DNA from: Candidatus Hydrogenedentota bacterium | GTDB lineage: Bacteria; Hydrogenedentota; Hydrogenedentia; Hydrogenedentales; JAEUWI01 | Assembly: GCA_034669905.1 (NCBI GenBank) | Contig: JAXMOL010000002.1 | Span: forward strand, 189,248-253,247 | Reading direction: 5' to 3' | Length of the DNA stretch: 64,000 bases | Part shown: piece by piece, positions 29,052 to 47,226 of the stretch | Numbering within the stretch: the stretch's first letter is position 1 | How the letters are laid out: the number at the start of each line of letters is the position of its first letter | Notes under the pieces: model-generated | Told to the model about the DNA's origin: nothing | The model's database searches: none | The model's input: the letters and a program-made list of their open reading frames with translations, nothing else | Translations under genes and position numbers: made by a program

Positions 29052-29645
29052 ATGAGCGAATACGTCCCACGCATTCTCGCCTTCGCCGGCAGCACCCGTA
29101 GCGATTCCTACAATAAGAAGCTGGCCGCCGCCGCGGCAGAGGCCGCCCGGGCTGCCGGAGCCGACGTGACCCTCGTCGACCTTCGTGACTACCCCATGCC
29201 CTTATTTGATGAAGATCTTGAATCGGCAGAAGGGCTTCCCGAAAGTGCGGTCAAGCTACGGGAATTGTTCCTGCGTCATGACGGACTGATCATCGCCTCA
29301 CCGGAATACAACGGTTCCCTGAGCGCGGTGTTGAAAAACACCATTGACTGGCTGAGCCGTCGCCAGGGCGATGAAACACCGCTCATCTGCTTCCGCGAAA
29401 AGGTGGCCTTACTCCTCGCCGCTTCCCCCGGTGGCCTCGGCGGCCTCCGTGCCTTGCGACACCTCAACACCATCCTCCACGGGATTCAGGTCATCGTGCT
29501 CCCCGAACAGAAGGCCATTCCTGCGGCCCACAAGGTCTTCGACGACACGGGCATCGCCGATGCCAAAGTGGCGAAATCCGTCGCCGATCTCAGCACCCGG
29601 CTCGTTGAAATGACCACGCGCATCCACCAGAAAAACAACGGCTAA
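29052..29645 (+). CDS. NADPH-dependent FMN reductase
   Basis: GSTRSDSYN, SPEYNGS..LKNTIDWLSR, SPGGLGG. Confidence 0.93.
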   Translation: MSEYVPRILAFAGSTRSDSYNKKLAAAAAEAARAAGADVTLVDLRDYPMPLFDEDLESAEGLPESAVKLRELFLRHDGLIIASPEYNGSLSAVLKNTIDWLSRRQGDETPLICFREKVALLLAASPGGLGGLRALRHLNTILHGIQVIVLPEQKAIPAAHKVFDDTGIADAKVAKSVADLSTRLVEMTTRIHQKNNG

Positions 29646-29669
29646 AGTCCAACCGCCCCCTGCCGATAA
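29643..29669 (+). promoter_or_regulatory. Sigma28 (FliA) promoter P1
   Basis: TAAA-N15-GCCGATAA, exact consensus. Confidence 0.88.
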
Positions 29670-29676
29670 GTAAAGC

Positions 29677-29849
29677 ACAGGCCAAGACACGGAAGTCGCG
29701 GCGACGAATTGACACGGAGGTCAACGGAGGTGGCGAAAGAGACTAGATGAACCGTCGGGTGTCATCCCAACACCAACGCGATCGACGTTTTGTCCCACAG
29801 TCTTTCCATCCATGAGAGGCGCCATAGCACACGCTGTTGTGGCGTTTTT
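29677..29849 (+). ncRNA. Candidate sigma28-dependent sRNA-1 (CsrA hairpins; antisense to flagellin-2 initiation region)
   Basis: Promoter, GAC-ACGGAN-GTC hairpins, 26 of 29 nt complementary to 32921-32949, terminator 29819-29849. Confidence 0.75.
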
Positions 29850-29945
29850 CTATTTTATCCGCCCTTTTTCCCGCGTACGCTGCCCCACGCCCCCCGACTT
29901 TTCGCCCACGCCCCAGCCGCCCATCCAACGCCGGCACATTTCCGC

Positions 29946-29972
29946 TAAAGGTTCTCGCTCCACCGCCGATAC
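29946..29972 (+). promoter_or_regulatory. Sigma28 promoter P2
   Basis: TAAA-N15-GCCGATAC. Confidence 0.85.
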
Positions 29973-29979
29973 TCTAATC

Positions 29980-30146
29980 ACAAGGCGACGACACGGAGGT
30001 CAACGCCGGCACGACACGGACGTCATTGCTACTTATCCTGGATACATACTCACAGGGTGGCCAATCCCACCACCTGCTATTGGGAGTGCCCCAGGGTCTT
30101 ACCTCTGAAACGCGTTGCGGTCTACACTGCAACGCGTTTCAAATTT
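29980..30146 (+). ncRNA. Candidate sigma28-dependent sRNA-2 (CsrA hairpins; antisense to flagellin-3 RBS)
   Basis: Promoter, two GAC-ACGGAN-GTC hairpins, GGGTCTTACCTC pairing with GAGGTAAGATCC, 15-bp terminal hairpin 30106-30141. Confidence 0.72.
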
Positions 30147-30179
30147 ATGGGGCATACTCCACCGATCCCATATTTCTGC

Positions 30180-30206
30180 TAAAGTTTTCTGCGGCACCGC
30201 CGATAC
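30180..30206 (+). promoter_or_regulatory. Sigma28 promoter P3
   Basis: TAAA-N15-GCCGATAC. Confidence 0.85.
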
Positions 30207-30213
30207 CATCATA

Positions 30214-30342
30214 TTAAGAGACAGATTTAACGTGTTCTTCAAGGAACGCTGGGGTGTCTATCCCGCACCGTATTCCAGCCGTTAATCTCTGCTTCTTACC
30301 TCCCCTGGTTGCGTCATGGCATTGAACCATGGCGCATCTTTT
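30214..30342 (+). ncRNA. Candidate sigma28-dependent sRNA-3 (antisense to flagellin-3 RBS)
   Basis: Promoter, shared ATCCC-loop hairpin, TCTTACCTCC complementary to 33968-33977, terminator 30310-30342. Confidence 0.7.
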
Positions 30343-31114
30343 ATGTGGGCTCCACACCGTCATACAGCACTTCCTTCATGACTAGCCCCTGGGGCGGTGC
30401 GCAATGCCCCAGAAATGGCCCCCCCGACACCAACGCCTCCTGAAGAAACTCCGGACCAAAACGCCCCCGCCCTATCTCCACCAACGTGCCGGAAAGATTA
30501 CGCACCATCTTATAAAGGAATCCATTGCCAAAAAACTCGATGTGCCACAGGTTCTGGCCGTCCCGGGGGCCCACCACCGCCCCTTGATGGAGCGTCGCGG
30601 CGTAAATCGTACGCACCGTCGTCTTCATCTGACACCCCGTGCTCTGAAACCCTGCGAAGTCATGGGTCCCCTCCAGTTGAGGCAAGAGCGACCGAATAAG
30701 GTCGATATCCACCCCGTAAGGAACCTGCCAGCTATAGGGAGCACTGAAGGGGTCCATTTCCCGACTGAAGTGAAAGGTATAGCAATAGCGCTTGGCCTTC
30801 GCTGAAAATCGGGCGTTAAAATCGGCAGAAACCGCTTCCAACGCCGTAATTTGGATTTCCGGCTCTAACATGCGACACAACGCATGGCGCAACGTGGGCG
30901 GCACCGCCTTGGGCCATTCACAGGAAAAGACCTGTCCCAGGGCGTGGACCCCCGCATCGGTGCGGCCGGCCCCCTGAATGCGGATAGGCTGAGAGGCAAT
31001 CCGGCTCATAGCCGCCTCAATATCCCCTTGAACCGTCCGTTGGTCCTGTTGGGCTTGCCAGCCGGAGAAGGGCGTTCCAAGATAGCGCACAGTGCCTTTG
31101 AGTGTGGTGGTCAT
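30341..31114 (-). CDS. truA: tRNA pseudouridine(38-40) synthase
   Basis: GAGRTDAGVHA, FNARFSA, GFLYKMVR. Confidence 0.96.
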   Translation of the reverse strand: MTTTLKGTVRYLGTPFSGWQAQQDQRTVQGDIEAAMSRIASQPIRIQGAGRTDAGVHALGQVFSCEWPKAVPPTLRHALCRMLEPEIQITALEAVSADFNARFSAKAKRYCYTFHFSREMDPFSAPYSWQVPYGVDIDLIRSLLPQLEGTHDFAGFQSTGCQMKTTVRTIYAATLHQGAVVGPRDGQNLWHIEFFGNGFLYKMVRNLSGTLVEIGRGRFGPEFLQEALVSGGPFLGHCAPPQGLVMKEVLYDGVEPT

Positions 31115-31426
31115 GGGCCTATTGTAATCGAGCCACGGATCCACCTACCACTTTCCGAGGGCCCGGAGAGCCAACGGTCGCGCTCTCACCCCACCATTTC
31201 CCGGCAGCCCCTCCACTGGGCGCAATACCTGGCGTCCATTCGGGGACTTATTTTCGGTTATCCGGGCCAGGCCGTGCACCGCATACCCCGGATGGCATCC
31301 AAAAAAACGAGGAAATTTTTCATTTTTTTTGCGGTGCGCGGTCCCGTATTGGCTGTTTCGGATTATTCGAAATCGTTTATGTCGGATTGAATCGGTGTGG
31401 GTCGGTGATTTTTTTTCAGAAAAAAC

Positions 31427-31453
31427 TAAAGTTGTCGCTCAAGTTGCCGATAA
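31427..31453 (+). promoter_or_regulatory. Sigma28 promoter of the flagellin operon
   Basis: TAAA-N15-GCCGATAA, exact, with A/T-rich UP element. Confidence 0.9.
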
Positions 31454-31459
31454 ATACTA

Positions 31460-31898
31460 CAGGTAAGCCGAAACAGGCCTTATTCAGGACAGTTTAAAAA
31501 AGTGAAATACGGAGTCCAGGGACGGGTTTCCGCGACATCATGGAGGATGGCGCATTCAGCGCGGGGTATGCACCCGCACGACGGCCTCGAGGCCGACGAC
31601 AACAATTGAATCACGTTGATCGAATACTTCGGTATGGATGAAGGCAGAGCAGGATGCTCAACGGCTTCATCAAGAAGAAACGTCGCAGTTAACGAATTGC
31701 CTGAAGCACGGGACATGCCTCAGGGATAACGGAGACTGCTTTCGAAATCAATGGGACCAATCGATTTCACGTAGAAATCGGTTTCTGACGCACCGGACCA
31801 TGGGACGGTAGCCGCCACACCGTGGTGGGTTACCCGGGATGGGACGTCAGAGGGAGCGCAAGGATGCGCTCTACCAACCACTCACGGAGGAATACATC
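31460..31898 (+). promoter_or_regulatory. ~440-nt flagellin leader rich in CsrA-type GGA sites
   Basis: 19 GGA trinucleotides counted by eye; hairpins GAGCAGGATGCTC and GAGCGCAAGGATGCGCTC. Confidence 0.7.
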
Positions 31899-32714
31899 AT
31901 GGGACTTCGAATCAACACCAATGTGTCTGCGCTCAACACGGCGCGGGTCTTACGTAGCTCAACGCTGGACTTGAACAAGAGCCTGCAACGGCTCTCCAGC
32001 GGATTGCGTATCAACCGTGCGGCCGATGACGCCGCAGGCCTGGCCATCGCCGAGGGTTTTCGCTCGGTGGTACGCGGCACGCAGGTTGCCCAGCGCAATG
32101 CGCAGGACGGAATCAGCCTGGTGCAGACGGCGGAAGGCGCATTGAGTGAAACGACCAACATACTGCAGCGTATTCGCGAGCTCGCCGTACAGGCAGCCAA
32201 CGGAACGCAGAGTACGGCAAACCGCGTATCGCTGGATGCCGAAGTCGATCAACTGTTAGCCCAAATCGATGATATCGCGTTTGACACGGAATTCAACGGT
32301 GTCCGGGTACTCAGCGGCGGCACTGTGCTGACGCTTCAAACCGGCGCTTTCCAGGGACAAAACCTGTCGATTGTGGTGGGTGCTGCGGGTCAGAACCAGA
32401 TCGGTGTTTCGCCGGTTAACCTGCAAACCGCTGCCGGTGCCATCAGTGCACTCAGTACGGTAGACGGTGCCCTGCGCTCGGTGAACACGCTCCGGAGTAA
32501 TCTGGGTGCCTTCCAGAACCGTCTGGAGTTCACCATCAGCACGCTCGCAATCCAGGAAGAAAACTCTTCCGCGTCCGAAAGCGCTATACGAGATGCCGAC
32601 ATCGCCCAGGAAACGATTCGCTTTACGCGGAATCAGATCCTGGTAAACGCCGGTACATCGATCCTGGCCCAGGCCAACATCGTGCCACAGACGGCACTGC
32701 AGTTGCTGGGTTAA
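31899..32714 (+). CDS. fliC: Flagellin 1 (271 aa)
   Basis: MGLRINTN, RLSSGLRINRAADDAAG, QRIRELAVQ, IRDADIA. Confidence 0.97.
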   Translation: MGLRINTNVSALNTARVLRSSTLDLNKSLQRLSSGLRINRAADDAAGLAIAEGFRSVVRGTQVAQRNAQDGISLVQTAEGALSETTNILQRIRELAVQAANGTQSTANRVSLDAEVDQLLAQIDDIAFDTEFNGVRVLSGGTVLTLQTGAFQGQNLSIVVGAAGQNQIGVSPVNLQTAAGAISALSTVDGALRSVNTLRSNLGAFQNRLEFTISTLAIQEENSSASESAIRDADIAQETIRFTRNQILVNAGTSILAQANIVPQTALQLLG

Positions 32715-32942
32715 TACACGTCGACAACCAGGGCGGCCGAACCTCAAGGGATACGAGGGGCCGGAAACGGAATTTATGGCCACCGGCCGCCCTGATAATC
32801 TTCAACGTAGAGAAAGGAGAACATAGGACTGCGAGTACTTAACGAGTCGCGTCGTTGAGCATTCGGTTTTTGTCAACTATCACGGAAGAATGAATAACAA
32901 AGGGATCGGGAATCCCTTTGGCCACTCATGGAGGAAAGTACT

Positions 32943-33761
32943 ATGGGACTTCGAATCAACACCAACGTGGCGTCGCTTAACTCGGCGCGTACCCTGAGCC
33001 GCTCTACGAGCGCGCTTAACAAATCGCTGGAACGTCTCTCCAGTGGTCTCCGCATCAACCGCGCAGCCGATGACGCTGCCGGTCTGGCCATCGCCGAAGG
33101 ATTTCGGTCGGTGGTGCGGGGCACCCAGGTCGCCCAGCGCAACGCACAAGATGGGGTCAGCCTCGTGCAAACCGCGGAAGGGGCGTTGAGTGAAACCACC
33201 AACATCCTGCAGCGGGTACGCGAACTGGCCGTACAGGCCGCGAACGGAACGCAGAGCTCTGAAAACCGTGCGGCCCTGAACACCGAAGTATCGCAGCTGC
33301 TCGCACAGATCGATGATATCGCCTTCGACACCGAATTCAACGGTGTGGCGGTATTGAGCGGCAGCAGCACCCTCACCTTGCAAACCGGCGCCGAATCGGG
33401 TCAGACCCTGCAGATTGCTATCAGCAGTGGTGCGGGCCAGGCCGCCATCGGCGTGAGCACCGTCAACATTTCCACCTCGGCCGGCGCCGTCAGTGCCCTC
33501 AGCCAGGTGGACGTAGCCCTGCAGCGGGTCAATTCCCTCCGCAGTAACCTCGGTGCCATCCAGAATCGTCTCGAATTCACCATCAATACCCTGGCGATTC
33601 AGGAAGAAAACTCGGCCGCCTCAGAGAGTGCGATCCGGGATGCGGACATTGCCCGCGAAACCATTCAGTTTACGCGGAACCAGATTCTGGTCAGTGCCGG
33701 CACGTCGGTACTTGCCCAGTCCAATGTGGTTCCCCAGACGGCGTTGCAGCTTCTCGGCTAA
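32943..33761 (+). CDS. fliC: Flagellin 2 (272 aa)
   Basis: Same N- and C-terminal flagellin motifs. Confidence 0.97.
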   Translation: MGLRINTNVASLNSARTLSRSTSALNKSLERLSSGLRINRAADDAAGLAIAEGFRSVVRGTQVAQRNAQDGVSLVQTAEGALSETTNILQRVRELAVQAANGTQSSENRAALNTEVSQLLAQIDDIAFDTEFNGVAVLSGSSTLTLQTGAESGQTLQIAISSGAGQAAIGVSTVNISTSAGAVSALSQVDVALQRVNSLRSNLGAIQNRLEFTINTLAIQEENSAASESAIRDADIARETIQFTRNQILVSAGTSVLAQSNVVPQTALQLLG

Positions 33762-33980
33762 TTCGCCATCCATAGTTTAAACCGGTTGTAACGTGGTGGC
33801 TCCGGCCCTTCCTTTGGAGGGGTCGGAGCAGCACCGTAACTATACGGAAGGAGTGCATCAGTCGGCCGATTTGCCGTCCATTTACCCACCGCGGGGATAA
33901 ATAGACGATGAGAAGGCCACGAAGAACATACACCGGGTTGGTTAGGGATACCCGACCGGGTGATCTTGGAGGTAAGATCC

Positions 33981-34799
33981 ATGGGATTACGTATAAATAC
34001 GAACATCCCGGCTCTCAACACGAGCCGGGTGCTCGATCGTTCCAGCCGTGCCTTGAACCGCAGTCTGGAACGGTTGAGCAGTGGTCTCCGCATCAATCGC
34101 GCAGCCGATGATGCGGCAGGCCTCGCTATTGCCGAGGGCTTTCGCACCCAGGTGCGGGGCACCCAGGTGGCGCAACGCAATGCGCAGGATGGAATCAGTC
34201 TCGTACAGACGGCCGAAGGGGCGTTGAGCGAAACGACCAACATCCTGCAACGCATTCGAGAACTCGCGATTCAGGCCGCCAACGGAACCCAGAGTTCCGC
34301 CAACCGCCAGTCACTCAACAACGAAGTGCAGCAGCTGATTGCCCAGGTGGAAGACATCGCTTTGGACACTCGGTTTAATGGCATCAACGTGTTGAGCAGC
34401 AACCAGTCCATCACGCTCCAGACCGGAGCCAATCCGAGCCAATCCCTTCAGGTGACCATCGGCGGCGCACGCAGCACCGATCTGCGCGTAAGCGCCGTCA
34501 ATATTTCGGCCGCGGCAGGCGCTATCAATGCCATCAGCCAGGTCGATATCGCGCTGGCAAGTGTGAACACCTTACGGAGCAGTCTCGGTGCCTTTCAGAA
34601 CCGGTTAGAATTCACCATCAATACCCTGGCCATTCAGGAAGAGAATTCGGCGGCCGCCGAAAGTGCTATCCGGGATGCCGACATTGCCCGGGAAACGATT
34701 CAGTTTACACGGAATCAGATCCTCGTGAATGCCGGTGTCAGTGTATTGACCCAGGCCAACGTGACCCCCCAGGCGGCGCTCACGTTGTTGAGCACATAA
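33981..34799 (+). CDS. fliC: Flagellin 3 (272 aa)
   Basis: Same N- and C-terminal flagellin motifs. Confidence 0.97.
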   Translation: MGLRINTNIPALNTSRVLDRSSRALNRSLERLSSGLRINRAADDAAGLAIAEGFRTQVRGTQVAQRNAQDGISLVQTAEGALSETTNILQRIRELAIQAANGTQSSANRQSLNNEVQQLIAQVEDIALDTRFNGINVLSSNQSITLQTGANPSQSLQVTIGGARSTDLRVSAVNISAAAGAINAISQVDIALASVNTLRSSLGAFQNRLEFTINTLAIQEENSAAAESAIRDADIARETIQFTRNQILVNAGVSVLTQANVTPQAALTLLST

Positions 34800-35327: not shown

Positions 35328-36320
35328 CTAGAGGTCTAAATTCAGGCCTTCCACTTCCGCCCGAATGAGGGCAAGCTCTTCCTCCGTCAAGATCACCGAT
35401 CCGGCTACCGCATTTTCGGCCGCCTGTTTCGGATTTCGTGCCCCCACCAAGGCCGTCGTAATGCCGGGCTGATGGGTCACCCATGCCGTGAAGAGTTGGC
35501 CGAGGGTAATCTCGTGGCCATCGGCCACGGGGCGCACGCGCTCCAGCATATCAATAACCTTGCGGCGATTCTCGGCCGCAAAAAGCGGGTTCCGATTACG
35601 GATATCCCCCTCGGGGAACGTTCGCTCCATGTCCACTTTACCGGTCAGGAGGCCCTGGGCAATGGGGCTGTAGGCGAGCACCCCAATCGTGTGCTCCCGG
35701 CAGTAGGGCAATAGCGATTCTTCCGGATCCCGTTGCAGCGCGTTGTAGCGCGGCTGGACACTGTCCACCGTGCCCTTGGTCTGACACAGGGCGATCATCT
35801 CCGTATCGAAATTGCTCACGCCAATCGCCCGTATCTTCCCCTGCTCTTTCAATTTGAGCAATGTCGCCATGGTGTCATCCAGGGGCCACGTGCTGTCAGG
35901 CCAGTGCACCTGATAGAGGTCAATGACGTCGATGCCCATGCGCTGCAGACTGGACTCACACTCGAATACTACCGATTCGGGTCGGCCATTGCGGTAGATC
36001 GTGCAGGGTGTCCCGTCATTCAGCTGGGTGTCCATAGCCTTTTGCCCTTCGGCCAGATCCCACCGCATACCGCATTTCGTGGCAATGATTACCTCGTCCC
36101 GTCGTCCCTTTATCGCCTGGCCCACTACGGTTTCGCTGTGGCCCATGCCATAGGTCGCCGCCGTGTCGATACAGGTAATCCCTGCGTCGATGCCTGCCTG
36201 CAGGGCCTTGACCGCCAGGGCGTCGTCAGAGCCTCCCCACAGCCATCCGCCAATGGCCCAGGCACCAAAACTGACGGCGGGAAGTTGAATATCGGTTGTG
36301 CCCAAAGTGGTATATTTCAC
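35328..36320 (-). CDS. Aldo/keto reductase
   Basis: DTAATYG, ATKCG, DLYQVHWPD, GKIRAIGVSNF, YSPIAQGLLTGK. Confidence 0.94.
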   Translation of the reverse strand: MKYTTLGTTDIQLPAVSFGAWAIGGWLWGGSDDALAVKALQAGIDAGITCIDTAATYGMGHSETVVGQAIKGRRDEVIIATKCGMRWDLAEGQKAMDTQLNDGTPCTIYRNGRPESVVFECESSLQRMGIDVIDLYQVHWPDSTWPLDDTMATLLKLKEQGKIRAIGVSNFDTEMIALCQTKGTVDSVQPRYNALQRDPEESLLPYCREHTIGVLAYSPIAQGLLTGKVDMERTFPEGDIRNRNPLFAAENRRKVIDMLERVRPVADGHEITLGQLFTAWVTHQPGITTALVGARNPKQAAENAVAGSVILTEEELALIRAEVEGLNLDL

Positions 36321-36569
36321 GCTTAGATCTCCGTGTTGTCGACGCATTATAGCGGGTCTGTCGCCCATCTGCCGTTGGGCTCAATGGTCTCCGATTATGA
36401 GGAGCCAGCCCCAGGGAGTGCAAGCTCTGAGAGGAATAGGGGGGCGACGCCGTAAAATCCGCTCCACCGCGGAACCACTTTATCCCGCTTGGGGTTATAC
36501 TACGTGTTGCGGCGGAATGCTATCCGGGCCGTTGACCCGTTCAAACCCATACCCGAAGGAGATAACACC

Positions 36570-37418
36570 ATGCCCAAGGTAATCATTGCGGTGGTCGTCG
36601 GCCTTATTGTTGGCCTGGCCATCGGCGCAGGGGCCATGCACCTCAAGCTCATGCCCCAACTACTCGCGCTCGACACTGCGCTTGCGGATACCCAACGCGA
36701 AATCGCCGCACTCCGCTCAAACGATGGCGATGCCGCACGGTTGGCACGCCTGGAGGCCGAGCGCACGGAGTATGATGCCAAGCTTTCCGCCCTCCGGGGA
36801 GAGCTGGACACCTTGCGGAAGCGCTCCGCCGTGACGCCGGCCGAAATAGATATCGCGGAAGACACCACCGACGTGAATGCCCTGGCCGAAGAAGAAGCAT
36901 CGGAGGCCCCAGCGGAAGAACAACCCGAGCGGGCAGGACGCCGGGGCCGTTGGGGCGGCGATGGTACGCCGGAAGAGCGGGAAGCCCGTCGCCAGGAATT
37001 CGTTACCCGTATGCAGGACAACCTCACCCAATTCTTCACGGGCGAGCTCGATAAGACGGGCAGCCCCGCAACGCAGGAGCGCCTCATCGCGTTGGAGAAC
37101 CAAATCCACGACATGATGGACCTGCGCATGCAGATGCGGCGGGCCGAAACCGACGAAGAGCGCGCCGCACTCGAGCAGGCCTTTGGCGAAACCATGACGA
37201 CGGCACGTAACACCATGAAGGAACAGCAACGGGAAATGGTCGATGCGCTGGCCACCCAGTTCAACATCACCGGCAAAGAAGATCGGCAGGCCTTCCAGCA
37301 GGCCCTGGAAGCGGCGGTAGACAGCCCCTTCTTCAGCGACAATCCGGCAGCCATCATGTTTGGTGGCGGAGGAGGAGGCCGACCCACCGGTGGACGACGG
37401 GGCGGTGGCGGACGCTGA
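36570..37418 (+). CDS. Membrane-anchored coiled-coil hypothetical protein with Gly/Arg-rich tail
   Basis: AAGGAG RBS, N-terminal TM helix, heptad-rich sequence. Confidence 0.8.
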   Translation: MPKVIIAVVVGLIVGLAIGAGAMHLKLMPQLLALDTALADTQREIAALRSNDGDAARLARLEAERTEYDAKLSALRGELDTLRKRSAVTPAEIDIAEDTTDVNALAEEEASEAPAEEQPERAGRRGRWGGDGTPEEREARRQEFVTRMQDNLTQFFTGELDKTGSPATQERLIALENQIHDMMDLRMQMRRAETDEERAALEQAFGETMTTARNTMKEQQREMVDALATQFNITGKEDRQAFQQALEAAVDSPFFSDNPAAIMFGGGGGGRPTGGRRGGGGR

Positions 37419-37459
37419 GCGGTTGCTTCTGCATTCGAATGGACCGTGAACAATAAAGG

Positions 37460-37499
37460 ACGGGTGGATCGGCATTACATCAAACGCCAATCCACCCGT
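37460..37499. terminator. Stem-loop between convergent genes
   Basis: ACGGGTGGAT..ATCCACCCGT. Confidence 0.55.
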
Positions 37500-37721
37500 T
37501 TCTACTGATTGAGCGAAGGTAGAAATTCAAATCGTTGGCTTCAACCGCAGACGCACGCTCCGGCTACATTCAACCTACCGACAGCGTAGCCACTATGGCG
37601 CAAAGCAGATTTTGACAGTTGGGAGCGCAGGCAGTCCGCCCGCGCTCCCAAGTCTTTATTCTCTAAGATGGCCAGCGAATCACTTGGAAGATGTCCGAGA
37701 TGAATCTCCGCCTTTTCAGAC

Positions 37722-40298
37722 CTATTTCTTCGGAATCTTAAGCTTCCAACCCAACTGCACATGGTCGGGACTCTTCAGCTTGTTCAGCTCCACAATGGCC
37801 TGCTGGGTCACGCCATACTTCTGGGCGATCCGCCGGAGATTGTCTCCCGGTGACACCACATGAATTTCATAGGTGCCCGGTGCCGGCGCTTCGACGGTCT
37901 CCGCCTTTTCCTCCGGTGCGGCAGCCATGGGGAGGTAGATAGTGAGCGTGCTTCCGGATTCTAACGGCGCATCCACACCGACCAGACCGTTCCAGGCCAC
38001 CACGTCGCTCGCCTGAACGCCATACTGATTGGCCACCGAAGGCACCGTATCCTCGGCCACCACACGGTGAGCCCGCATATCTGTGTCGGGGGGCTGGGGA
38101 GCCTTCTCTGGCGAAGGGACCGGTTCCGCAGGCTCCGGGGTCTCTTCGGGATCCGAACCGGTGATGGGTTCCGCTTCCGGCGCAGGCACGTCCTCTTTCC
38201 CTTCCCCCTCATCGGCTGGCTCTGGGTTGTCCGCGGCCATGGCGGCACTATCCTCTTCAGGCGAAGGGCTTTCTTCCGTCACCTCCTCCGCGGGGGCTTC
38301 CGCTTCCGCCTTCTTTTCCGCCGCCGAAGCCTCCCCTTCCGTTGCGCCGTCTTCTTTCGCTTCAGGACCAACCTTGAGCTTAAACCCGTACTTAATAACC
38401 TGCGAATCCAGGTTATTCCATTTCATGAGATCGGCCACACTCACGTTGTACCGTTTCGACAGGGCCAGGAGTGAATCGCCCTTTTCAATACGGTGCTCGC
38501 GAAACGGCCCGGCTACTTCAGGCGCTTCTTCTTCCGCTTTTTCCGGTTTCACCACCGTGACTTCTTCCGGTGCCTTCTCCTCGGCGTCCGGTTTGGGCTT
38601 GGCATCCGCTTCGACTTCCGGCGTCGCCATTTCCGTTTCCGCTTTGACGTCATCCGACTTCACGTCTTCCGTGGTGGCCGTCTCGGTCTTGTCGGCGGGC
38701 GGCGTGGTATCTTCCGTCGCGGGTTCCTCGGTGCTCCCCCCGTCTGTTTCCGCAGGCACTTCTACCGTGATGGGCAACGTGACCGGCGTTTTCACCATCT
38801 CCTCAGCAGGGGGCTTCACGTCCGTCGTGGATCCCTTCGCCGTATCCGTACCCGCTTCGTCATCTACCTTCGTCTCTTCCGCAGGCTCCTCGGTCTTTTC
38901 GACGGGCTTGGGGTCGACCTTCACGGCATCGGCAGGCGGGGTCGGCTCCGTCGGCGCAGGCACCTCCCGATTCTCTGCCACCTGCACGACCGGCGGCGCA
39001 ACAGGCGCGGGCGACTTGGCCAGTTGGGCCTGCCAGGCATCAAGACGTGCCTGACTCGACTTCAACTGGTCCGACGGAAATCCGGACTGCTCGGAAACCC
39101 GCACGAGGGCCTTGCAAATGGCGGCGAGCTTTTCCCGATTCGCCTCTTTCAACAACACCACGTCACAGCCGCTCCCCAGCGTCGTCACCGCGATGCGCTC
39201 CAGGGGATGCTCGTCGGACACGGGTAAGCTGCCCAGATCATCGGACAGGATGACGCCCGTGAAGCCGAGTTTTTCCCGCAATACAATCTTCAATAGCTTG
39301 GGCGAGCTCGAGGCAGGCCGCTTGGGGTCATCCAACTCGATGCCCGGCACCGCCATGTGGCCCACCAGGATGCCCGGGATGCCCGCTTCGATGGCGTCTT
39401 GGAAAGGCTGTAGCCCCGCTGCCAGGCCGTCCATCTGATTCGCCGGAATATACCACTGCCCCGAATCATCCACAATAGCAAGACCCGCCCCCGGGAAATG
39501 GCCGGCTACCGGAATGACACCGCCGCCACGAAACTGGTCGGTATAGCTCAGACCCAGGCGGGTCACCACATCCGGCTGACTACCCAACGTCGTCTGGCCC
39601 AGTAACGGGGCCGACACGTTAGGCACATAGAGATCCAGAGACGGCGCGATAAATACACCAATGCCATGCTTCCGCGCAGCCCGGGCCTGTTGCCGGGCCG
39701 CCGCAACGGGATCCGCCAGATCCCCCTCGCCCGCCATCTCCAACACCGTCGCCAGCGCTGGTACCGCACGGGTGTCATCATGAAAGACAATTAAGGGCGG
39801 GTCACTCAGGGTGGTGCCCAGCCCAACCGCCTCTTTCAACTGCAACACCAGGGCACCCAGCTGAAGCGGATCCGCCACATTCCGCGGGCCCAGCACAATA
39901 CCGCCCGGCTTGAATTCATTAAGCCATTCGAGGGTTTCCAACGAAGCCTTCGTGCCTTCGATACCCACGAAGACATGCCGCGCCGGCCAGCGCCCCGAAA
40001 CATCGGCGTCGAAACGCGCGGCCATCGGCTCTGGTTCAGGCAGTGCGGGCTCCGGGTCCGGCGTGACCTCAACCGCCTCAGGCGCTGTGTTTTCGGAACC
40101 GGGACCTTCCACTACGGGCGGAGTCGTCTCCTCCCCCGGGACCACCGCGACCTGCTCCTCCGTGGGAACGGCCTCATCCGGGCCCATGGCATCCCGAATG
40201 CCATAGCCCAGGCCCGTGCCCAGCACAATACCGAGCAAGAAAATAGAATAAACGGTCTTAGAAATGGCTGTTGTCTGTGGCTGGTACCTGTGGTTCAC
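37722..40298 (-). CDS. Membrane-anchored degenerate GH3 (NagZ-like) domain, acidic linker and three LysM domains
   Basis: GHFPG, ILVGH, LREKLGFTGVILSDDL; three LysM repeats. Confidence 0.88.
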   Translation of the reverse strand: MNHRYQPQTTAISKTVYSIFLLGIVLGTGLGYGIRDAMGPDEAVPTEEQVAVVPGEETTPPVVEGPGSENTAPEAVEVTPDPEPALPEPEPMAARFDADVSGRWPARHVFVGIEGTKASLETLEWLNEFKPGGIVLGPRNVADPLQLGALVLQLKEAVGLGTTLSDPPLIVFHDDTRAVPALATVLEMAGEGDLADPVAAARQQARAARKHGIGVFIAPSLDLYVPNVSAPLLGQTTLGSQPDVVTRLGLSYTDQFRGGGVIPVAGHFPGAGLAIVDDSGQWYIPANQMDGLAAGLQPFQDAIEAGIPGILVGHMAVPGIELDDPKRPASSSPKLLKIVLREKLGFTGVILSDDLGSLPVSDEHPLERIAVTTLGSGCDVVLLKEANREKLAAICKALVRVSEQSGFPSDQLKSSQARLDAWQAQLAKSPAPVAPPVVQVAENREVPAPTEPTPPADAVKVDPKPVEKTEEPAEETKVDDEAGTDTAKGSTTDVKPPAEEMVKTPVTLPITVEVPAETDGGSTEEPATEDTTPPADKTETATTEDVKSDDVKAETEMATPEVEADAKPKPDAEEKAPEEVTVVKPEKAEEEAPEVAGPFREHRIEKGDSLLALSKRYNVSVADLMKWNNLDSQVIKYGFKLKVGPEAKEDGATEGEASAAEKKAEAEAPAEEVTEESPSPEEDSAAMAADNPEPADEGEGKEDVPAPEAEPITGSDPEETPEPAEPVPSPEKAPQPPDTDMRAHRVVAEDTVPSVANQYGVQASDVVAWNGLVGVDAPLESGSTLTIYLPMAAAPEEKAETVEAPAPGTYEIHVVSPGDNLRRIAQKYGVTQQAIVELNKLKSPDHVQLGWKLKIPKK

Positions 40299-40547
40299 CG
40301 GCCGACCTCCCTGAATCAGTAACGAAAAAACCTACACAATCCGAGCAATTCCGACACCCTGCCCCCGTCGAATTCCTCGAATTCTTCGACTATACCATCT
40401 TACGCCGCAACCATTCATATCGCCCCGACGCGCCGCCCCCGCAGTAGGCACTCCCCACTGCCCCCTTGCCGATGTCCCCCGCGAAAATCTGGCGAAAAAA
40501 AGTGGAAAAGCCTTATCATCATATGGTACTATTTCCAGCACCTTTGA

Positions 40548-40624
40548 GGCGGTGTAGCTCAGTTGGTTAGAGCATCGGAATCATAATCCGAGTGTCCGCG
40601 GTTCGAATCCGTGCACCGCTACCA
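40548..40624 (+). tRNA. tRNA-Met (CAT), elongator type; island integration site
   Basis: GGCGGTG/CACCGCT acceptor stem, AGTTGGTTAG D loop, CAT anticodon, GTTCGAATCC, encoded CCA. Confidence 0.96.
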
Positions 40625-40634
40625 TAATAATATC

Positions 40635-40668
40635 AAGGACTTACGTCATATGGCGTAAGTCCTTTTTT
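40635..40668 (+). terminator. Intrinsic terminator after the tRNA
   Basis: AAGGACTTACG..CGTAAGTCCTT followed by TTTT. Confidence 0.88.
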
Positions 40669-40683
40669 GTGTCGAAACAGACC

Positions 40684-40742
40684 ATCTGTGCCAAATCTGT
40701 GCCAGTTGAGAAATCCGCGATAGTGGCACAGAAATGGCACAG
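40684..40742. repeat. Probable integrase arm-type sites
   Basis: ATCTGTGCCA twice as direct repeats, then TGGCACAG twice inverted; further TGGCACA near 40837. Confidence 0.75.
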
Positions 40743-40867
40743 GAATTTACATGACATAGTAACCACTTAGTAAACAGGGCTTATTCTATTGTCATTCATT
40801 CGGATTGGTTGTCTTTTGTAGTGGTTTGCCGTACACTGGCACAAAACCAACTACAAAAGGGAACATC

Positions 40868-42037
40868 ATGGCCTCAATTCAAGAGCGCATCGACCGAAAC
40901 GGAAAGCCCAGGTACACGGCCCGAATCCGCGTGAACGGTGAGAAACCACACACGGCAACGTTCAACACATTGACGGCGGCGAAGCAATGGGCGCAACGGA
41001 CGGAATCCGATTTGCGACGGGGGCGGCATTTGCCGGACGTGGAAGCCAAGCGCCGGACCTTGGCCGATGCCATTGACCGGTATGAGGAATCGCCGTCCTT
41101 TCGAAACAAGGCACCGGGCACGATTGCATCCCAGAACAAACACCTGACCCACTGGCGCGAAAGCTTGGGACACGTGACACTTTCGCACCTTACCCCTGCC
41201 ACGATTGGCGATGAGCGCGACCGAATAGCGCGGGGTGAGAACCGGAAGGCACCAAAACGGCATCGACCACGAAAAGGCAAGGTCGAAGCCAAGGATGAAA
41301 AATGCGATGCACTCAAGCCCCGGTCTCCGGCAACCGTGGTGCGCTATTTGGCGGCCCTGTCCGCCGTACTGAGCTATACGGTAAACGAATTGCGCTGGAT
41401 AGAGACCAACCCTATCGCGCGCGTATCCAAGCCCAAGGAACCGCGCGGGCGCGTACGCATTCTGGCGGATGAAGAGCGGGAAGCCCTACTCAATGCGTGC
41501 AAGGAATCTGACAATATCCATCTTTATGACATGGTAGCGCTTGCACTGTGTACGGCAGCGCGCAAGGGTGAGTTACGGAGCCTGCAATGGCGTCACGTGG
41601 ATTTTGACCAGCGACGTATCGTACTGGATAAGACGAAGAACGGCGACCGGCGCGTGATTCCGCTTCGGGGCGAAGCCGAGCGTATCCTAAAGGCGCGTTC
41701 CAAAATTCGACGAATTGATAACCCGTATGTATTCCCAGCCCCCTTCAAGCGCGGCAAGGTACCCGGCCCCGTGGACTTTACCCAAGCATGGTATGACGCC
41801 TTAGATGACGCGAACATAGAAGACTTTCGGTTTCACGACCTACGCCACAGCGCGGCATCCTATCTGGCGATGAATGGCGCAACACTGACCGAACTGGCGG
41901 AAGTCTTGGGACACCGGACATTACAAATGGTGAGACGCTATAGCCACCTTACAGAAGCGCATACGGGCGACCTACTAGAACGCATGAATGATTCCATCTT
42001 CAAAACGGAAGTCTTGAACCATGAAAAAAAAGCGTGA
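40868..42037 (+). CDS. int: Tyrosine integrase
   Basis: TAAR, KTKNG, FHDLRH, LGH, MVRRY catalytic set. Confidence 0.96.
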   Translation: MASIQERIDRNGKPRYTARIRVNGEKPHTATFNTLTAAKQWAQRTESDLRRGRHLPDVEAKRRTLADAIDRYEESPSFRNKAPGTIASQNKHLTHWRESLGHVTLSHLTPATIGDERDRIARGENRKAPKRHRPRKGKVEAKDEKCDALKPRSPATVVRYLAALSAVLSYTVNELRWIETNPIARVSKPKEPRGRVRILADEEREALLNACKESDNIHLYDMVALALCTAARKGELRSLQWRHVDFDQRRIVLDKTKNGDRRVIPLRGEAERILKARSKIRRIDNPYVFPAPFKRGKVPGPVDFTQAWYDALDDANIEDFRFHDLRHSAASYLAMNGATLTELAEVLGHRTLQMVRRYSHLTEAHTGDLLERMNDSIFKTEVLNHEKKA

Positions 42038-42716
42038 CAACGGGCTTCTAATGGACACCTATGAGGTGGAGCGCTTAGAATCACAAGAATCCCCAGGTGA
42101 GTACTGGGAAGTAGAGAAAATCACGATTGGCAGCGAGACGTGGTTTGAGGATGCCGTAGCCTATGCCAACGATGCATGGGACAGACTTCGGGCCGATACG
42201 CTGGATTTCGACACCTACAAGGCCCAGGCTGGTATCACCGCCTACGACTGGGGCTGGACTCAATTTGCCATAGCTACAGATTCCCCTACAGAGAAGAGCT
42301 TGGGGGCACTTAAAGAATTGCGAAGTCGACTTCTTTGGTACAAAAAAAAACCACACGACGCCCACGCTTACGAAATCGGCAAGGCGGAAATATTATTACG
42401 CGCACTAATGGATTCGCCCCAAGTGGAACAGGGCCAGAAAAACATTACCGGACGCGAAGGCGGATATAAGACCAAGAGAGAAAAGCGAAAAGTTACGGAT
42501 GCCCTAATTCTTGAAGTGTTTGATGCTAAGGAAGCAAAACACGCAGATAGAGCTACAGAACGCGAACTATGCGCCCATGCGGCAGCGGAACTAAATCGGG
42601 CCGTGAAATCGGGCGACAAGAAGCTAATATCCGTCTTGGTCGATTTAAATAAAGAAGAATTCACAACGGAAATGGTGCGGTTCCGTGTCCAGCGACGCAA
42701 GAAAGAAAGTGGTTGA
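42021..42716 (+). CDS. Hypothetical protein overlapping the integrase end (possible C-terminal HTH)
   Basis: 231-aa ORF located between int and xis. Confidence 0.65.
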   Translation: MKKKRDNGLLMDTYEVERLESQESPGEYWEVEKITIGSETWFEDAVAYANDAWDRLRADTLDFDTYKAQAGITAYDWGWTQFAIATDSPTEKSLGALKELRSRLLWYKKKPHDAHAYEIGKAEILLRALMDSPQVEQGQKNITGREGGYKTKREKRKVTDALILEVFDAKEAKHADRATERELCAHAAAELNRAVKSGDKKLISVLVDLNKEEFTTEMVRFRVQRRKKESG

Positions 42717-42804
42717 GTTGTAAATACACAACCATCCTTATAGTGGTTTACTTCAACTAGAAGGCAATGCCATTGGGGTATTGTTACTAGTTGAGGTTTT
42801 AGAA

Positions 42805-43044
42805 ATGACCACTACAAGAAATCCCGCTACCCCCGCACTCAGATACATCCCACTTTCCCAATGGGACCAACATTTTGCATGGCCCACCGTTTCCGCATTG
42901 CGTTGGTTGGTATACAACGCCCGTAGCAATGGTTTGGAAAAAGCGAACGCAATCCGCCGCGTTGGAAAACGGGTTTTAATAAACCCGGAAAACTTTCATG
43001 CGTGGGTGGACTCAAATCCATCCAGCACGGGCGGCGTGTCATGA
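42805..43044 (+). CDS. Excisionase-like small DNA-binding protein
   Basis: WPT..ALR.L.....NG....IRRVGKRVLIN..F..W; GAGG RBS. Confidence 0.75.
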   Translation: MTTTRNPATPALRYIPLSQWDQHFAWPTVSALRWLVYNARSNGLEKANAIRRVGKRVLINPENFHAWVDSNPSSTGGVS

Positions 43045-43173
43045 AGTGTGAAAGAATGCCCCCCGCTGGTGCGCCAACACCAACAAGGGGCCAAACAGAA
43101 TTAACTTCCAGTTTAAGTATAGCACCGCCCGCCGGGAACGTGTACCCATTACTTAGAACGCGGATTTCATAAT

Positions 43174-44007
43174 ATGGGTGGGTCAATCAGCAATCGCGGC
43201 CACCGGCACCATGAGGGTCACGGCGGCTATTTTTGGCGGAAGGGAGAAGAGTTTCTTCCGCTTACTGTGGAGATGACCACATCAGACTCATGGCGGTCAC
43301 TCACACCAACATCACAGGGTATTCTACTGGATATGCTATGCCATTTCTGGCGATGCACTCGTTCTGACACAGAAGCCGTCAAGGGTGGTTTCTTTCACAC
43401 GTATCGCGACTCCCGGATTGATTGCTCACCACGAACTTTCACCGCCAGCATGGAAGCAATTGTAGACCGTGGGTGGTTTTCGAATTGCAGTGGCAAGCGC
43501 ATCGTACCGCGTTACCGTCCCGGACCCTGGCGGGAATACAAGGACGCCAAGTTGAAGCCCGCAGACGCCACCCAGGGGCGCACAAAGAAGAAAAAAAAGG
43601 CATCGACATGTCTTGGGCATTTTTGGCAGCCCGAACAGGTTTTCAGCCCCATTTCGCATTCGCTTCTGAGGCATGATGCATGGCGCGTGCTATCACCTTC
43701 ATCCCGATGCATCCTATTGGACATGATTCACGTCTACAACGCGGCTACTTTCGGCGACCACAAAACAGGTGGGATAAGCTACACCTTCAAAACATGTCGC
43801 GTGGGCTGTTCGGTGAATACCTTTCATTCCGCCCGTGCCGAAGTCATAGCCGCAAAATGGTTCACATATAAACCGGACGGCGATATCGTTTTTCTGACAC
43901 CCGGACCATGGCGGGACTTCACCGCACCATCGTCGGCAAAATTCAGGAAGAAAAAGAAGGCGAAGGCAAGGTACCTCAAGAAACAGAAGGCACGCCTGAG
44001 ACAATAG
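43174..44007 (+). CDS. Putative replication protein with a tandemly duplicated winged-helix-like domain
   Basis: Two repeats of D.WR.L.P.S..ILLDM...GG.......CS..TF......WF...PGPWR, each followed by a Lys-rich run. Confidence 0.6.
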   Translation: MGGSISNRGHRHHEGHGGYFWRKGEEFLPLTVEMTTSDSWRSLTPTSQGILLDMLCHFWRCTRSDTEAVKGGFFHTYRDSRIDCSPRTFTASMEAIVDRGWFSNCSGKRIVPRYRPGPWREYKDAKLKPADATQGRTKKKKKASTCLGHFWQPEQVFSPISHSLLRHDAWRVLSPSSRCILLDMIHVYNAATFGDHKTGGISYTFKTCRVGCSVNTFHSARAEVIAAKWFTYKPDGDIVFLTPGPWRDFTAPSSAKFRKKKKAKARYLKKQKARLRQ

Positions 44008-44018
44008 GGCACCCCAAG

Positions 44019-44160
44019 AATTGCGACGTACAACCCTCAATAATTGCGGCGTACAACCCTGGGATTATGAAGCCGCACTCCCAAAAAATGCGACGCTAGA
44101 AGGCCATGAACCACGAAAAATAACGCCCAAAAAATGCGGTGAACTTATATATAACCATAT
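44019..44160. repeat. Iteron-like repeats plus AT-rich tract (candidate origin)
   Basis: AATTGCG(A/G)CGTACAACCCT twice, CCAAAAAATGCG twice, then TTATATATAACCATAT. Confidence 0.55.
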
Positions 44161-45045
44161 GGACCCGCTGTTTGAATACTTCCACACCAACCAACAACCC
44201 GACCCCTTCAACACTTGCACGTTCCGTAACCAATGGACCATACCCAACCCCGGCCCCGTAGTTTCGATAAGAACACCAACACGTTCCCCAGTACCACACC
44301 TAAAGCCCGTACCCAAGCCAACAGGGGAAAATTGAAAAAACGAAACTATGAATTACGTTAGACTAGAAAATCGATCCCTTTACAAAGAACACCAGTCCAA
44401 CTCCAAGCAGCGTCATCACACACGCCAATAAACGCCCGCAAGCGGCCCGTACGGACGATTCACAACCCAACCCGAACGACTTTGCCACACCGGCAGAAAA
44501 AACCCTTAGAATCGATTCTGAAACGAACGACCATTTTGGCGCGTTATCGACATAACGCCGCCCGGAAACCATGCGCACGCCGGGCGTGAGTACCCGACGC
44601 TTCCGACCACCCCGAAGAAATATTCAATTTTTCGATCTTTCAATCTAATCACCACCCCGCCCGAATAATTATACAAACACCTACACATTCCCCCCCTTCG
44701 ACACGTACCCCCCATGCTTCCCTTCACCCCGTTCGACATGTGCCCATTGCCGAGCCGCACCATCAAGGGCATCTCCGACCACGAGATGTACCGCACGTTC
44801 CAGCAAACCATCAAGGAAGCCGCCGACACCGTAGGAGTGCCGCCGGTGTGGTTTGATGATAATTGGGCCGAACGAAGCTAATAGACAGACCACGTCAGTG
44901 GCCCCGTTGATGGTGGTCTTACTTTGCCCGTACGCGCCCGCAATCGCCCCGTAAGCCACGAAGTCGACCCCGGCAATGTAAAGATGCCCCAAACCGCTGA
45001 AATCCCGTGCAATCGAAACCAGAACCGAAAAGAAAGGCTAATAAA

Positions 45046-45372
45046 ATGGGTGAAGAATTTAGACCCGAAGAATTGAGCCGAATAATGGCGGACCCCCGAT
45101 ATTCAGAAATTCCTATGCCCTGTATGCACTACAAAAATTTGGTGAACATAGGAAACCAGTTCGACGCCGGAGGCTGGACGTGCAAGGCGTTTCCTGAACA
45201 GATTCCGAATGACATCATGGCCCTGCAAAATCCCCACACCGAAAAGGTACCATCACAAATAGGCGATTCCCTTTATGACCCGAAAATCTACAAAGAAGAC
45301 CATTCCGGACGCGAATGGCACTATACGGCGGATGCCACTTGGAAATTCGTAGACACCGGCACGAAGGAATAA
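45046..45372 (+). CDS. Small phage-type protein with CxAFPxxIP motif
   Basis: AAAGG RBS; C..Y..CKAFPEQIPNDI....H. Confidence 0.65.
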   Translation: MGEEFRPEELSRIMADPRYSEIPMPCMHYKNLVNIGNQFDAGGWTCKAFPEQIPNDIMALQNPHTEKVPSQIGDSLYDPKIYKEDHSGREWHYTADATWKFVDTGTKE

Positions 45373-45962
45373 AGATTCATAGATTCAAAAAACCAAACGA
45401 ATCGAAGTCAACTCACCGAAGAAACGGACAAATCAGAAAGACCACCCGGAAGACCAAGTTTTCAATAATTCGAAAAAGCAAGCGGGCAATCAACACCACC
45501 AGGAACGCGCAACCAAGCCCCGTCAAACGAGGAAAACGAAAGGTTTTTTCAATATGCAATTTGGGGCTAAAAGGGGATGACAAGTAGAAAGAGCCCCACA
45601 CCGTCATTCCCCACCAGTAAGCCCGCAACAAGGGGCACACCCAGAAAACGCGGCAGCGGCCAACCACGGGCGTGATATGGGCGAAGTAGGTCATATGCCC
45701 AAGCTAAACTTGGGTAAAAGGCGCTCGATTTCCTTATAGCTTCCGGCTCAAAAAGATGTATCCTTCATACTTCTTTTCCGCGTAACATTTGTAACAACCG
45801 AATTCGCCAAGAAAAGCCCAAAGCGCAGCAGGAAGGACGCTATTACGACCAGGCGGATAGGGTGCGAAAAAGGCACGGCGCGCACGGTTCAGATGATGTG
45901 ATAGCATGTGCCTTAGTTGACGTGCAATTCACGCTCAATTTCCTACGCCGTCTGCAACATAA

Positions 45963-47060
45963 TTGGGAGTTTTCATATTGGCGTTGAACGCTGAGAAATT
46001 GGAACTGTTTCCGGGATATCAAGATTGCATATCCCCGGAAGTGAAGGAGGCAATTGACACCCTTGCAGCGGCGGAAGGTGCGGAAGGACGGGGGGCAATT
46101 TTCACCCGTGCCGAAGTGGTCGACTTCATTCTTGACCTGATTGGCTATACCAAAGACAAGCCGTTGCATTAATTTCGAATCCTTGAACCGTCATTCGGCG
46201 GCGGGGAATTCTTACGTGCCATCGTGCGGCGTCTATTGCATTCTTGGAAGATTCGGAATGCCAATTCCCCTTTGACGGATTTGGGACTGTCTATCCGGGC
46301 CGTTGAGTTGCATCGCGAAACCTTCGACGCGACTCGAAAGCTACTTCTTCAAGACATGCGCCTTCTCGGTTTGACCGAGAAAACTGCAACCGAGTTATGC
46401 AACGTCTGGTTGATTCAGGGGGACTTCCTTCTTTCACCGATGGATGGGGAGTTTAACTTTGTTGCCGGGAATCCGCCCTACGTTCGATCCGAACGAATCC
46501 CGAATACTTTGTTGAAAGTGTATCGCCAAAGATTCAAATCTATGTATGACCGTTCGGACTTGTACGTTCCCTTTATAGAGCGGTCAATGTCATTGCTTGC
46601 AGACAAGGGCACGCTGGGATTTATATGTGCCGACCGATGGACCAAAAACAAGTGTGGTGGACCGCTGCGAAATCTAGTGTCGGACGGCTTTCATCTAAAA
46701 ATCTACGTCGATATGGTGAACACGTCGGCATTCCATAGCGATGTCATTGCTTACCCGGCCATCACGGTAATTGGCCGTGAAAAAGCCGGGCCAACGCGTG
46801 TTGCACACAGTCCGGAGATCGAACGAAAAGAACTATCGACGTTGGCAAAAAGCCTTGTGTCTGTCCCCGCGTCGAAATTGAAAGATTCCGTTAGGGAAAT
46901 GGGTTCCGTGGTAAATGGTTCCGAACCGTGGTTGTTGGAAGCCCTGGACCAAATGGAGTTGATACGACGGCTTGAACGCGACTTCCCAACCATTGAGCAA
47001 GTAGGCTGCAAGGTTGGTATCGGCGTTGCGACCAAGGCCGGGACAATTATTCAATGTTGA
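45963..47060 (+). pseudogene. N6-adenine DNA methyltransferase (Eco57I/PaeR7I-like) with in-frame stop and 3' truncation
   Basis: GAIFT..KPLH*FRILEPSFGGGEFL with TAA at 46170-46172 in frame; GNPPYVR, DLYVPFIE; ends soon after KVGIGVAT. Confidence 0.87.
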
Positions 47061-47205: not shown

Positions 47206-47226
47206 GTTGGGCGCACTTGAGGAACT

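Follow-up and report, generated by a model that had tools for sequence, protein, structure and literature searches.

The window, as we call the whole 64,000-nucleotide stretch of DNA analysed, carries three units, RNA-A, RNA-B and RNA-C, between a gene for an NADPH-dependent FMN reductase and truA, and three flagellin genes with flaG lie about 1.6 kb downstream of the hairpins of these units (Table 1). At the sequence level a sigma28-type promoter opens each unit, a structured RNA follows, and a terminator, in all three cases a strong hairpin, closes it. The promoter motif CTAAAG..GCCGATA, which we take to be the sigma28 consensus, occurs four times in the window, once per RNA unit and once at the flagellin cluster, and not at all in shuffled sequences; FliA is encoded in the same genome. 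Elsewhere in this genome, two short genes that look FlgM-like to us lie downstream of sigma28-type promoters (G000:C35:22106-22399 and C49:22777-23094), and a fourth member of the group, RNA-D (G000:C63:15858-16063, outside the window), shows a sigma28-type promoter and, besides a pair of CsrA hairpins, a GUCCC hairpin that is weak.

Table 1. Coordinates of the RNA units and the flagellin cluster in the window.
Feature	Position	Strand	Basis or remark
Sigma28-type promoter of RNA-A (CTAAAG..GCCGATA)	29642..29668	+	motif match
RNA-A, about 180 nt	29675..29856	+	ends placed from promoter and terminator; model R2; folding z-score -2.1
RNA-A CsrA-type hairpin 1 (GAC-ACGGAA-GUC)	29686..29697	+	fits the ANGGAN loop given in part of PMC7652899
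RNA-A CsrA-type hairpin 2	29711..29722	+	motif, fold
RNA-A UCCC-loop hairpin, tip of long stem	29758..29774	+	motif, fold
RNA-A 3' arm, antisense to the Shine-Dalgarno site and start codon of fla2 (32920-32950)	29791..29821	+	
RNA-A terminator hairpin	29814..29850	+	
Sigma28-type promoter of RNA-B	29945..29971	+	motif match
RNA-B, about 165 nt	29978..30145	+	folding z-score -4.45
RNA-B CsrA-type hairpins	29990-30001 and 30013-30024	+	
RNA-B UCCC-loop hairpin, two possible registers	30056..30074	+	
RNA-B 3' arm, antisense to the ribosome-binding site of fla3 (33965-33991)	30085..30109	+	
RNA-B terminator hairpin	30106-30141	+	
Sigma28-type promoter of RNA-C	30179..30205	+	motif match
RNA-C, about 130 nt, without CsrA hairpins	30212..30345	+	folding z-score -4.26; model R1
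RNA-C UCCC-loop hairpin	30253..30269	+	
RNA-C 3' arm, antisense to the ribosome-binding site of fla3 and the 3' side of its leader hairpin	30284..30312	+	
RNA-C terminator	30310-30336	+	
Sigma28-type promoter ahead of flagellin cluster	31426..31452	+	motif match
fla1 leader hairpin of CsrA type; its loop, AAGGAU, is unable to pair with UCCC	31856..31869	+	
Flagellin fla1, not a top predicted target	31899..32714	+	
fla2 leader hairpin, loop CGGGA; four possible pairs to RNA-A loop; GGGAU in 5' stem arm	32898..32920	+	
Flagellin fla2, predicted RNA-A target	32943..33761	+	
fla3 leader hairpin, AGGGAU (33944-33949) at tip; predicted partner of RNA-B and RNA-C loops	33934..33959	+	
Flagellin fla3, predicted RNA-B and RNA-C target	33981..34799	+	

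The three loop hairpins were found exactly where the initial annotation had placed them, and their fifth stem pair is U-A, G-C and U-G in the three copies, as it had reported. The window holds three matches to the hairpin pattern, compared with a mean of 0.04 in shuffled sequences, the pattern having been derived from these same copies. Since the genome as a whole contains 14 matches, the hairpin motif by itself is unspecific, and specificity comes from the promoter-RNA-terminator context. In RNA-B the fold of lowest energy is shifted in register, so that two C residues of UCCC are paired and the loop is only partly open. Contigs from the RNA libraries of two studies, mostly 90-95% alike, cover positions 29530-30394 piecewise and, starting at about 31475, the flagellin cluster. 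Because these contigs run across the gap between A and B and reveal neither ends nor strand, they lend weak support to expression. Little contig cover fell on the flanking genes or on 36000-55900, which is uninformative; the runs had been picked for containing the stretch.

To follow the RNAs in 101 related genomes, placed in Ca. Hydrogenedentota by their nearest flagellin records, we used two covariance models, R1 built from eight C-type and R2 from eight A-type sequences. R1 matched 46 of the 101 genomes, R2 matched 74 and the union was 76, counts that are descriptive only, kin genomes not being independent. All 76 RNA-positive genomes are among the 77 with a flagellin-N match, the 77th (G073) having a single weak one, and neither model matched in any of the 24 genomes without flagellin. 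At the level of the phylum 98 of 135 genomes match, and the RNAs span 13 families; R2 found nothing in five outgroup genomes, too few to bound the family. FliW was present in 73/101 genomes, including 72 of the 76 RNA-positive ones, and fliW and csrA are adjacent in the genome of the window. Hfq was found in none of the 61 genomes searched for it, and the genome of the window, which is 96% complete, gave no match to Hfq or ProQ. The loose hairpin pattern was discarded as a family marker: it matched in 55/61 genomes, mostly by chance, and 9 of 20 loci retrieved with it had no promoter. Scanned against Rfam at the gathering score, the window yielded just a tRNA, the region 29600-30400 gave one chance-level miRNA match, and the RNA family matched none of the Rfam models, those for CsrB/RsmY/RsmZ and RsaE included. 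A tRNA gene with a CAU anticodon lies at 40548-40621. A literature search, mainly of open-access coverage, turned up no description of these RNAs, nor of sRNAs that seed on CsrA hairpin loops.

A curated set of 154 RNAs from 72 genomes was assembled from 147 parsed candidates, of which 21 were dropped by eye as non-family or wrongly terminated, with 19 re-parsed and 9 hand-anchored sequences added. By a strict rule, 118 of the 154 carry UCCC in the hairpin loop; among the remaining 36 are weak-stem cases, g17 forms and members without the motif. The stem alignment comprised 81 of 106 distinct hairpin windows, the other 25, irregular stems among them, having been excluded by eye, which favours the result. 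All four core positions were paired in 58 of 64 distinct stems, compared with 31.2 (maximum 40) after shuffling of the halves with the register equally free. In a fixed register 79.3% of cells were paired versus 72.7% after shuffling, slid registers giving lower values, and two-sided changes numbered 36 versus 12.2, a level reached in 0/500 shuffles. An ungapped alignment anchored on UCCC was abandoned; it blurs the stem because loop lengths vary. We also searched metagenomes with an independent pattern, the promoter box plus two CsrA hairpins with the loop ignored, which returned 88 loci. Among the 78 distinct loci with enough sequence, 57 contained a UCCC hairpin, compared with 5-18 for five control 4-mers, and all 78 had a -35 box although this was absent from the search pattern. 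The UCCC loop lies mostly 42-50 nt from the terminator. Several longer members of families f3 and f5 (L224, L231, L232, L235, L226, L239 and L244) have what appears to be a tandem pair of UCCC hairpins.

These results indicate that the hairpin is almost certainly part of a conserved structured RNA. A covariance-model comparison, named in the initial annotation as a check, returned homologues in 76/101 genomes with a covarying stem. The argument that stem differences among the three copies reveal a real RNA of common ancestry holds by way of these homologues, but not from the copies themselves: GGUG/CACC is identical in all three, so the evidence for covariation comes from the relatives. Likewise, the conserved loop proposed as AUCCC reduces to a core UCCC, because the preceding base varies (A 84, G 25, U 8 and C 1 among the 118 hairpins).

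The initial annotation had missed a longer 3' arm, antisense to a ribosome-binding site, which confers target specificity. Under a uniform arm rule applied to 5236 roughly called genes, with hybridisation energy computed without accessibility, the arm of RNA-A ranked fla2 first, those of RNA-C and RNA-B ranked fla3 fourth and 15th, and that of RNA-D ranked fla2 31st, while fla1 ranked 102 or worse. Hand-picked arm segments had given ranks of 1, 9 and 1 of 5232 and were set aside for the uniform-rule ranks. RNA-D has no clear target; with hand-picked segments another gene, one resembling flgF, ranked 10. The predicted arm duplexes, at -31 to -42 kcal/mol, span the Shine-Dalgarno site itself and, for A-type arms, reach over the AUG as well; the arms are partly paired in the free RNA. 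For the 141 RNAs having at least two of their own flagellins fetched, the best site in the own genome stood at a median quantile of 0.12 among genomes, with 98/141 in the top quartile; arm specificity was weaker in held-out genomes (median quantile 0.26, 10/20). In family f5 the matching is lineage-specific, with GGAGGGUAAG sites accompanying CUUACCCUC arms. We conclude from these complementarities that the 3' arm very probably pairs with the initiation region of its target.

Flagellin leaders carry a GGA hairpin loop in 177 of 194 cases and ANGGAG over the Shine-Dalgarno site in 184 of 194. The pentamer GGGAU had been reported ahead of each of the three flagellins and at the start of fla3; it does occur there, with a background of about 1.2 per kb per strand. 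To examine the loop separately, targets were assigned by the arm alone (energy no higher than -28, margin of 3 or more, g17 left out), giving 89 arm-assigned pairs, 76 of which have GGGA in the leader loop. Such a loop was found in 60 of 72 arm-chosen leaders versus 25 of 70 unchosen ones. In the 76 pairs, the base preceding UCCC and the one following GGGA were A:U 46, A:C 5, A:A 3, G:U 7, G:C 8, G:A 1, U:A 5 and U:U 1, so that 59/76 are Watson-Crick, compared with 41.8 after shuffling; the variant pairings are thus AUCCC:GGGAU, GUCCC:GGGAC and UUCCC:GGGAA. Collapsing to genera, which lessens kinship without removing all of it, left 27 of 37 versus 18.9 shuffled (p 0.0012), and two alternative cut-offs gave p 0.0002 and 0.0027. 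The G:C pair occurs in six genera. In genus g23, the orthologous pair of A RNA and fla2 reads GUCCC:GGGAC in one genome (G043) and AUCCC:GGGAU in three others, and G020 carries both states, G:C between A and fla2 and A:U between B and fla3. A first covariation pass (64/77), in which sites chosen by position were sometimes stem arms, was superseded by the loop-only rule.

The agreement is not complete. In 13 of the 89 targets, including all five g20 pairs, the proximal loop has no GGGA though the RNA retains UCCC, and the flanking base is mismatched in 10/76 pairs, one of them involving RNA-A of the window, where A stands opposite A and only four loop bases pair with the fla2 leader loop. In a held-out set with rules fixed beforehand, 23 rows were parsed and seven pairs passed; six of the seven had GGGA, all A:U, with no variant pair among them. 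Taken together, these data make it likely that the loop kisses the leader loop of its target. Two observations concern the leaders themselves. The fla1 leader (31459-31898, about 440 nt) contains further GGA sites and stretches conserved in two relatives (G004 and G007), possibly a cis-regulatory element, and a hairpin between fla1 and fla2 (32838-32859), with similar letters ahead of fla2 in several relatives, could be a terminator or processing site separating the two genes.

Two genera provided natural experiments on this pairing. Of the seven C-type RNAs in genus g17, six have the loop CACGCC and the seventh (G026) has CACACC, which leaves one mismatch. GGCGUG appears in the hairpin loop of the last flagellin leader in 7/8 genomes, amid divergent flanks, compared with 0/23 other g17 leaders and 6/163 leaders elsewhere. 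The g17 arm points to this last flagellin in six of seven cases; the seventh, G045, is ambiguous, its best target by energy being another flagellin (margin 1.1). In G067 the last leader reads GGCGUU, and a search of this 85% complete genome for its C-type RNA found none. In genus g44, four genomes (G128, G130, G131 and G133) are without the third flagellin at this locus; their loops have become AUCCG, AUUCG or AUUCU and their arms are altered, while CsrA hairpins, stem and terminator are retained. By contrast, G134 has the third flagellin, a GGGAU leader loop and an intact RNA, and G079 and G132 are intermediate. The g17 swap and the g44 decay are probably one event each. The proposal that the loop is a seed for CsrA-type sites is supported by the covariation among homologues, the g17 swap and the g44 decay, but it does not extend to fla1, whose proximal site cannot pair with UCCC.

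RNA-A and RNA-B begin with two GAC-ACGGAN-GUC hairpins, and an ANGGAN loop has been described for CsrA/RsmE in the part of PMC7652899 cited here. Among the 154 RNAs, 110 have two CsrA motifs, nine have three, two have one and 33 have none. It is highly likely, judging by motif and fold, that the hairpins at the 5' end of A- and B-type RNAs bind CsrA. Since these hairpins persist without the pairing module in g17 and without the target in g44, they appear to have a role of their own, and titration of CsrA suggests itself as the simplest reading. Whether the RNAs would truly titrate CsrA is evenly balanced; CsrB, by comparison, is credited with 22 GGA (PMC7652899). Shortened forms also occur. 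Some A-type RNAs of g17 (L133-L137, L035 and L289) are cut to about 105 nt and keep the pair of CsrA hairpins and the terminator but have neither UCCC hairpin nor arm. Metagenome units of about 65 nt and without a taxon (L338, L353, L375, L379 and L406) comprise a sigma28-type promoter, two CsrA-type motifs and a terminator, with tRNA-like sequence behind at least three of them; they are candidate pure CsrA-binding RNAs, possibly from beyond the phylum. At one locus (L405) csrA-like coding fragments flank a promoter motif together with a pair of CsrA-type hairpins, which may reflect misassembly or duplication.

On balance, we favour the view, held with fair though not high confidence, that a sigma28-transcribed sRNA family represses chosen flagellins by pairing with both CsrA-type sites of their leaders, the hairpin serving as seed. 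In this model sigma28 would transcribe the RNAs along with the flagellin cluster, the UCCC loop would kiss the GGGA loop of the target leader, and the arm would then pair over the Shine-Dalgarno site, in RNA-A also over the AUG, blocking initiation without Hfq. First flagellins, whose leader loops are mostly AAGGA, ACGGA or AUGGA, would largely escape, and the 5' hairpin pair in A- and B-type RNAs would bind one CsrA dimer, probably titrating it. A feed-forward loop would result, in which the first flagellin is favoured at the expense of fla2 and fla3 and filament composition is thereby set. Repression is the likely sign of regulation. A point against the model is that loop and arm share their 5'-3' order with the mRNA sites, so that simultaneous pairing would need a non-colinear complex, the alternative being sequential pairing.

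The CsrA step may differ from this. If CsrA acted as a matchmaker or stabiliser, with one dimer bridging a hairpin of the RNA to a site on the mRNA and so speeding pairing, the RNAs would not be sponges. This reading, compatible with loop kissing and differing solely in the CsrA step, would suit the results for Hfq (0/61 genomes) and ProQ, has a precedent in SR1/ahrC as outlined in the parts of PMC6546359 used here, and agrees with the presence of two sites, few for a sponge. We nevertheless regard it as unlikely, because 33/154 RNAs have no CsrA motif and most of these retain arm and loop, and because the two-hairpin module survives alone with its terminator in g17 and outlives the target in g44.

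The partner of the loop may also differ. In an ordinary colinear two-part duplex, the arm would lie on the Shine-Dalgarno site and the UCCC loop on the start-codon AUGGGA. Besides the order of the sites, the base after UCCC, a purine (A or G) in 103 of the 118 hairpins, suits the U of AUG, and 7 of the 13 RNAs whose target leader lacks GGGA have GUCCC, suiting AUGGGAC. At the flanking base 39/81 pairs fit, compared with 28.3 shuffled (p 0.00015), but this is before genus collapse, after which 17/37 versus 13.6 is not significant (p 0.096). Moreover, only these 39 of 81 fit at that base, 36 being A opposite C; the g17 start codon is unchanged while the loop changed toward the leader loop; and the AUG is already under A-type arms. 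We consider this arrangement improbable, and of the GGGAU sites put forward as loop partners, those in leader loops are favoured, the one at the start codon being the weaker candidate.

A further suggestion of the initial annotation, that the loop is a protein-binding motif, is disfavoured. If UCCC were a protein-binding or stability motif and the arm alone paired with the mRNA, a nearly invariant loop lying mostly 42-50 nt from the terminator would be expected, as would its retention in the 13 RNAs whose target loop lacks GGGA; covariation in trans with the mRNA, replacement in g17 and decay in g44 would be unexpected for a protein site, and make this very improbable. Equally doubtful is activation, in which the RNAs would evict CsrA from the target and then be displaced or processed. 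They do cover both CsrA-type sites, and Vibrio FlaX is reported, in a portion of bioRxiv 10.64898/2026.08.28.747715, to activate or repress different flagellins, but the predicted duplexes of -31 to -42 kcal/mol overlie the Shine-Dalgarno site. Finally, RNA-A resembles an inverted fla2 leader and contains a 22-codon AUG frame, but conservation in 13 families and matching to own-genome targets speak against non-functional inverted leader copies, and the short frame, rejected as a peptide gene, is not conserved in relatives (broken in G004 and G005), leaving both ideas largely refuted and with a negligible probability.

If the RNAs imitate CsrA at both leader sites and also soak it up, they would be a case of CsrA-antagonising sRNAs alongside FliW. 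A passage of a 2020 review called joint action of FliW and sRNAs on CsrA undetermined in any bacterium (PMC7652899), a point that may since have been answered; the presence of FliW in 72 of 76 RNA-positive genomes bears on such joint control. The RNAs are short enough for in vitro work with native CsrA, and the family supplies natural compensatory variants for a loop-loop seed, from a full swap to decay on target loss. It also suggests an Hfq-free way for bacteria with several near-identical flagellins to set their ratio.

A close parallel is Vibrio FlaX, a trans-acting, ProQ-associated sRNA cut from the flaA 3' UTR, which, in the parts of PMC11879080 used here, is described as pairing with the leader of one flagellin paralogue at more than one place, blocking initiation and altering filament composition, as is predicted here. 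Unlike FlaX, these units have their own promoters, the genome of the window has no ProQ match, and pairing is predicted at the very sites of CsrA; sequence comparison was limited to Rfam scans. The Campylobacter RNAs CjNC1/CjNC4 and CJnc170 are likewise sigma28-dependent, paralogous and Hfq-independent, act on flagellar leaders and belong to a host with CsrA-FliW, but according to the abstracts their flagellar targets are sigma54-dependent, they measure about 44 nt, and CsrA hairpins are unmentioned there (PMC4626219, PMC11187230). E. coli UhpU, MotR, FliX and FlgO are also sigma28-controlled sRNAs tuning flagellin levels; they differ, in the portions of PMC10578931 cited, in being UTR-derived and studied with Hfq, MotR and FliX pairing in coding sequences. 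Staphylococcus RsaE and RNAIII resemble these RNAs in having an unpaired UCCC in hairpin loops, although that of RNA-B is partly paired, and use it as an Hfq-free seed; their UCCC pairs with the Shine-Dalgarno site in the excerpts of PMC2790875 used, whereas here the predicted partner is an upstream CsrA hairpin loop and a separate arm would cover the Shine-Dalgarno site.

With CsrB/RsmZ these RNAs share ANGGAN-loop hairpins near the SELEX consensus RUACARGGAUGU, as quoted from part of PMC7652899, and McaS both pairs with mRNA and binds CsrA in the account excerpted from PMC10729762. They differ from CsrB, RsmZ and McaS in having no more than 2-3 sites, in their sigma28-type promoter, in occurring together with FliW and in carrying a pairing module directed at the target sites of CsrA itself. 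The arrangement recalls the B. subtilis hag-CsrA-FliW system, which, in the sections of PMC13443453 drawn on, has two GGA sites in the flagellin leader, one of them at the Shine-Dalgarno site; adjacency of fliW and csrA is a further shared feature. Every ingredient has a precedent, in FlaX, the sigma28 sRNAs of Campylobacter and E. coli, UCCC seeds, McaS and SR1. The boldest reading, tentative and given somewhat less than an even chance, is a phylum-wide family that would imitate CsrA by base-pairing with its two leader sites while soaking up CsrA itself, so that control of chosen flagellin paralogues would pass from protein to RNA.
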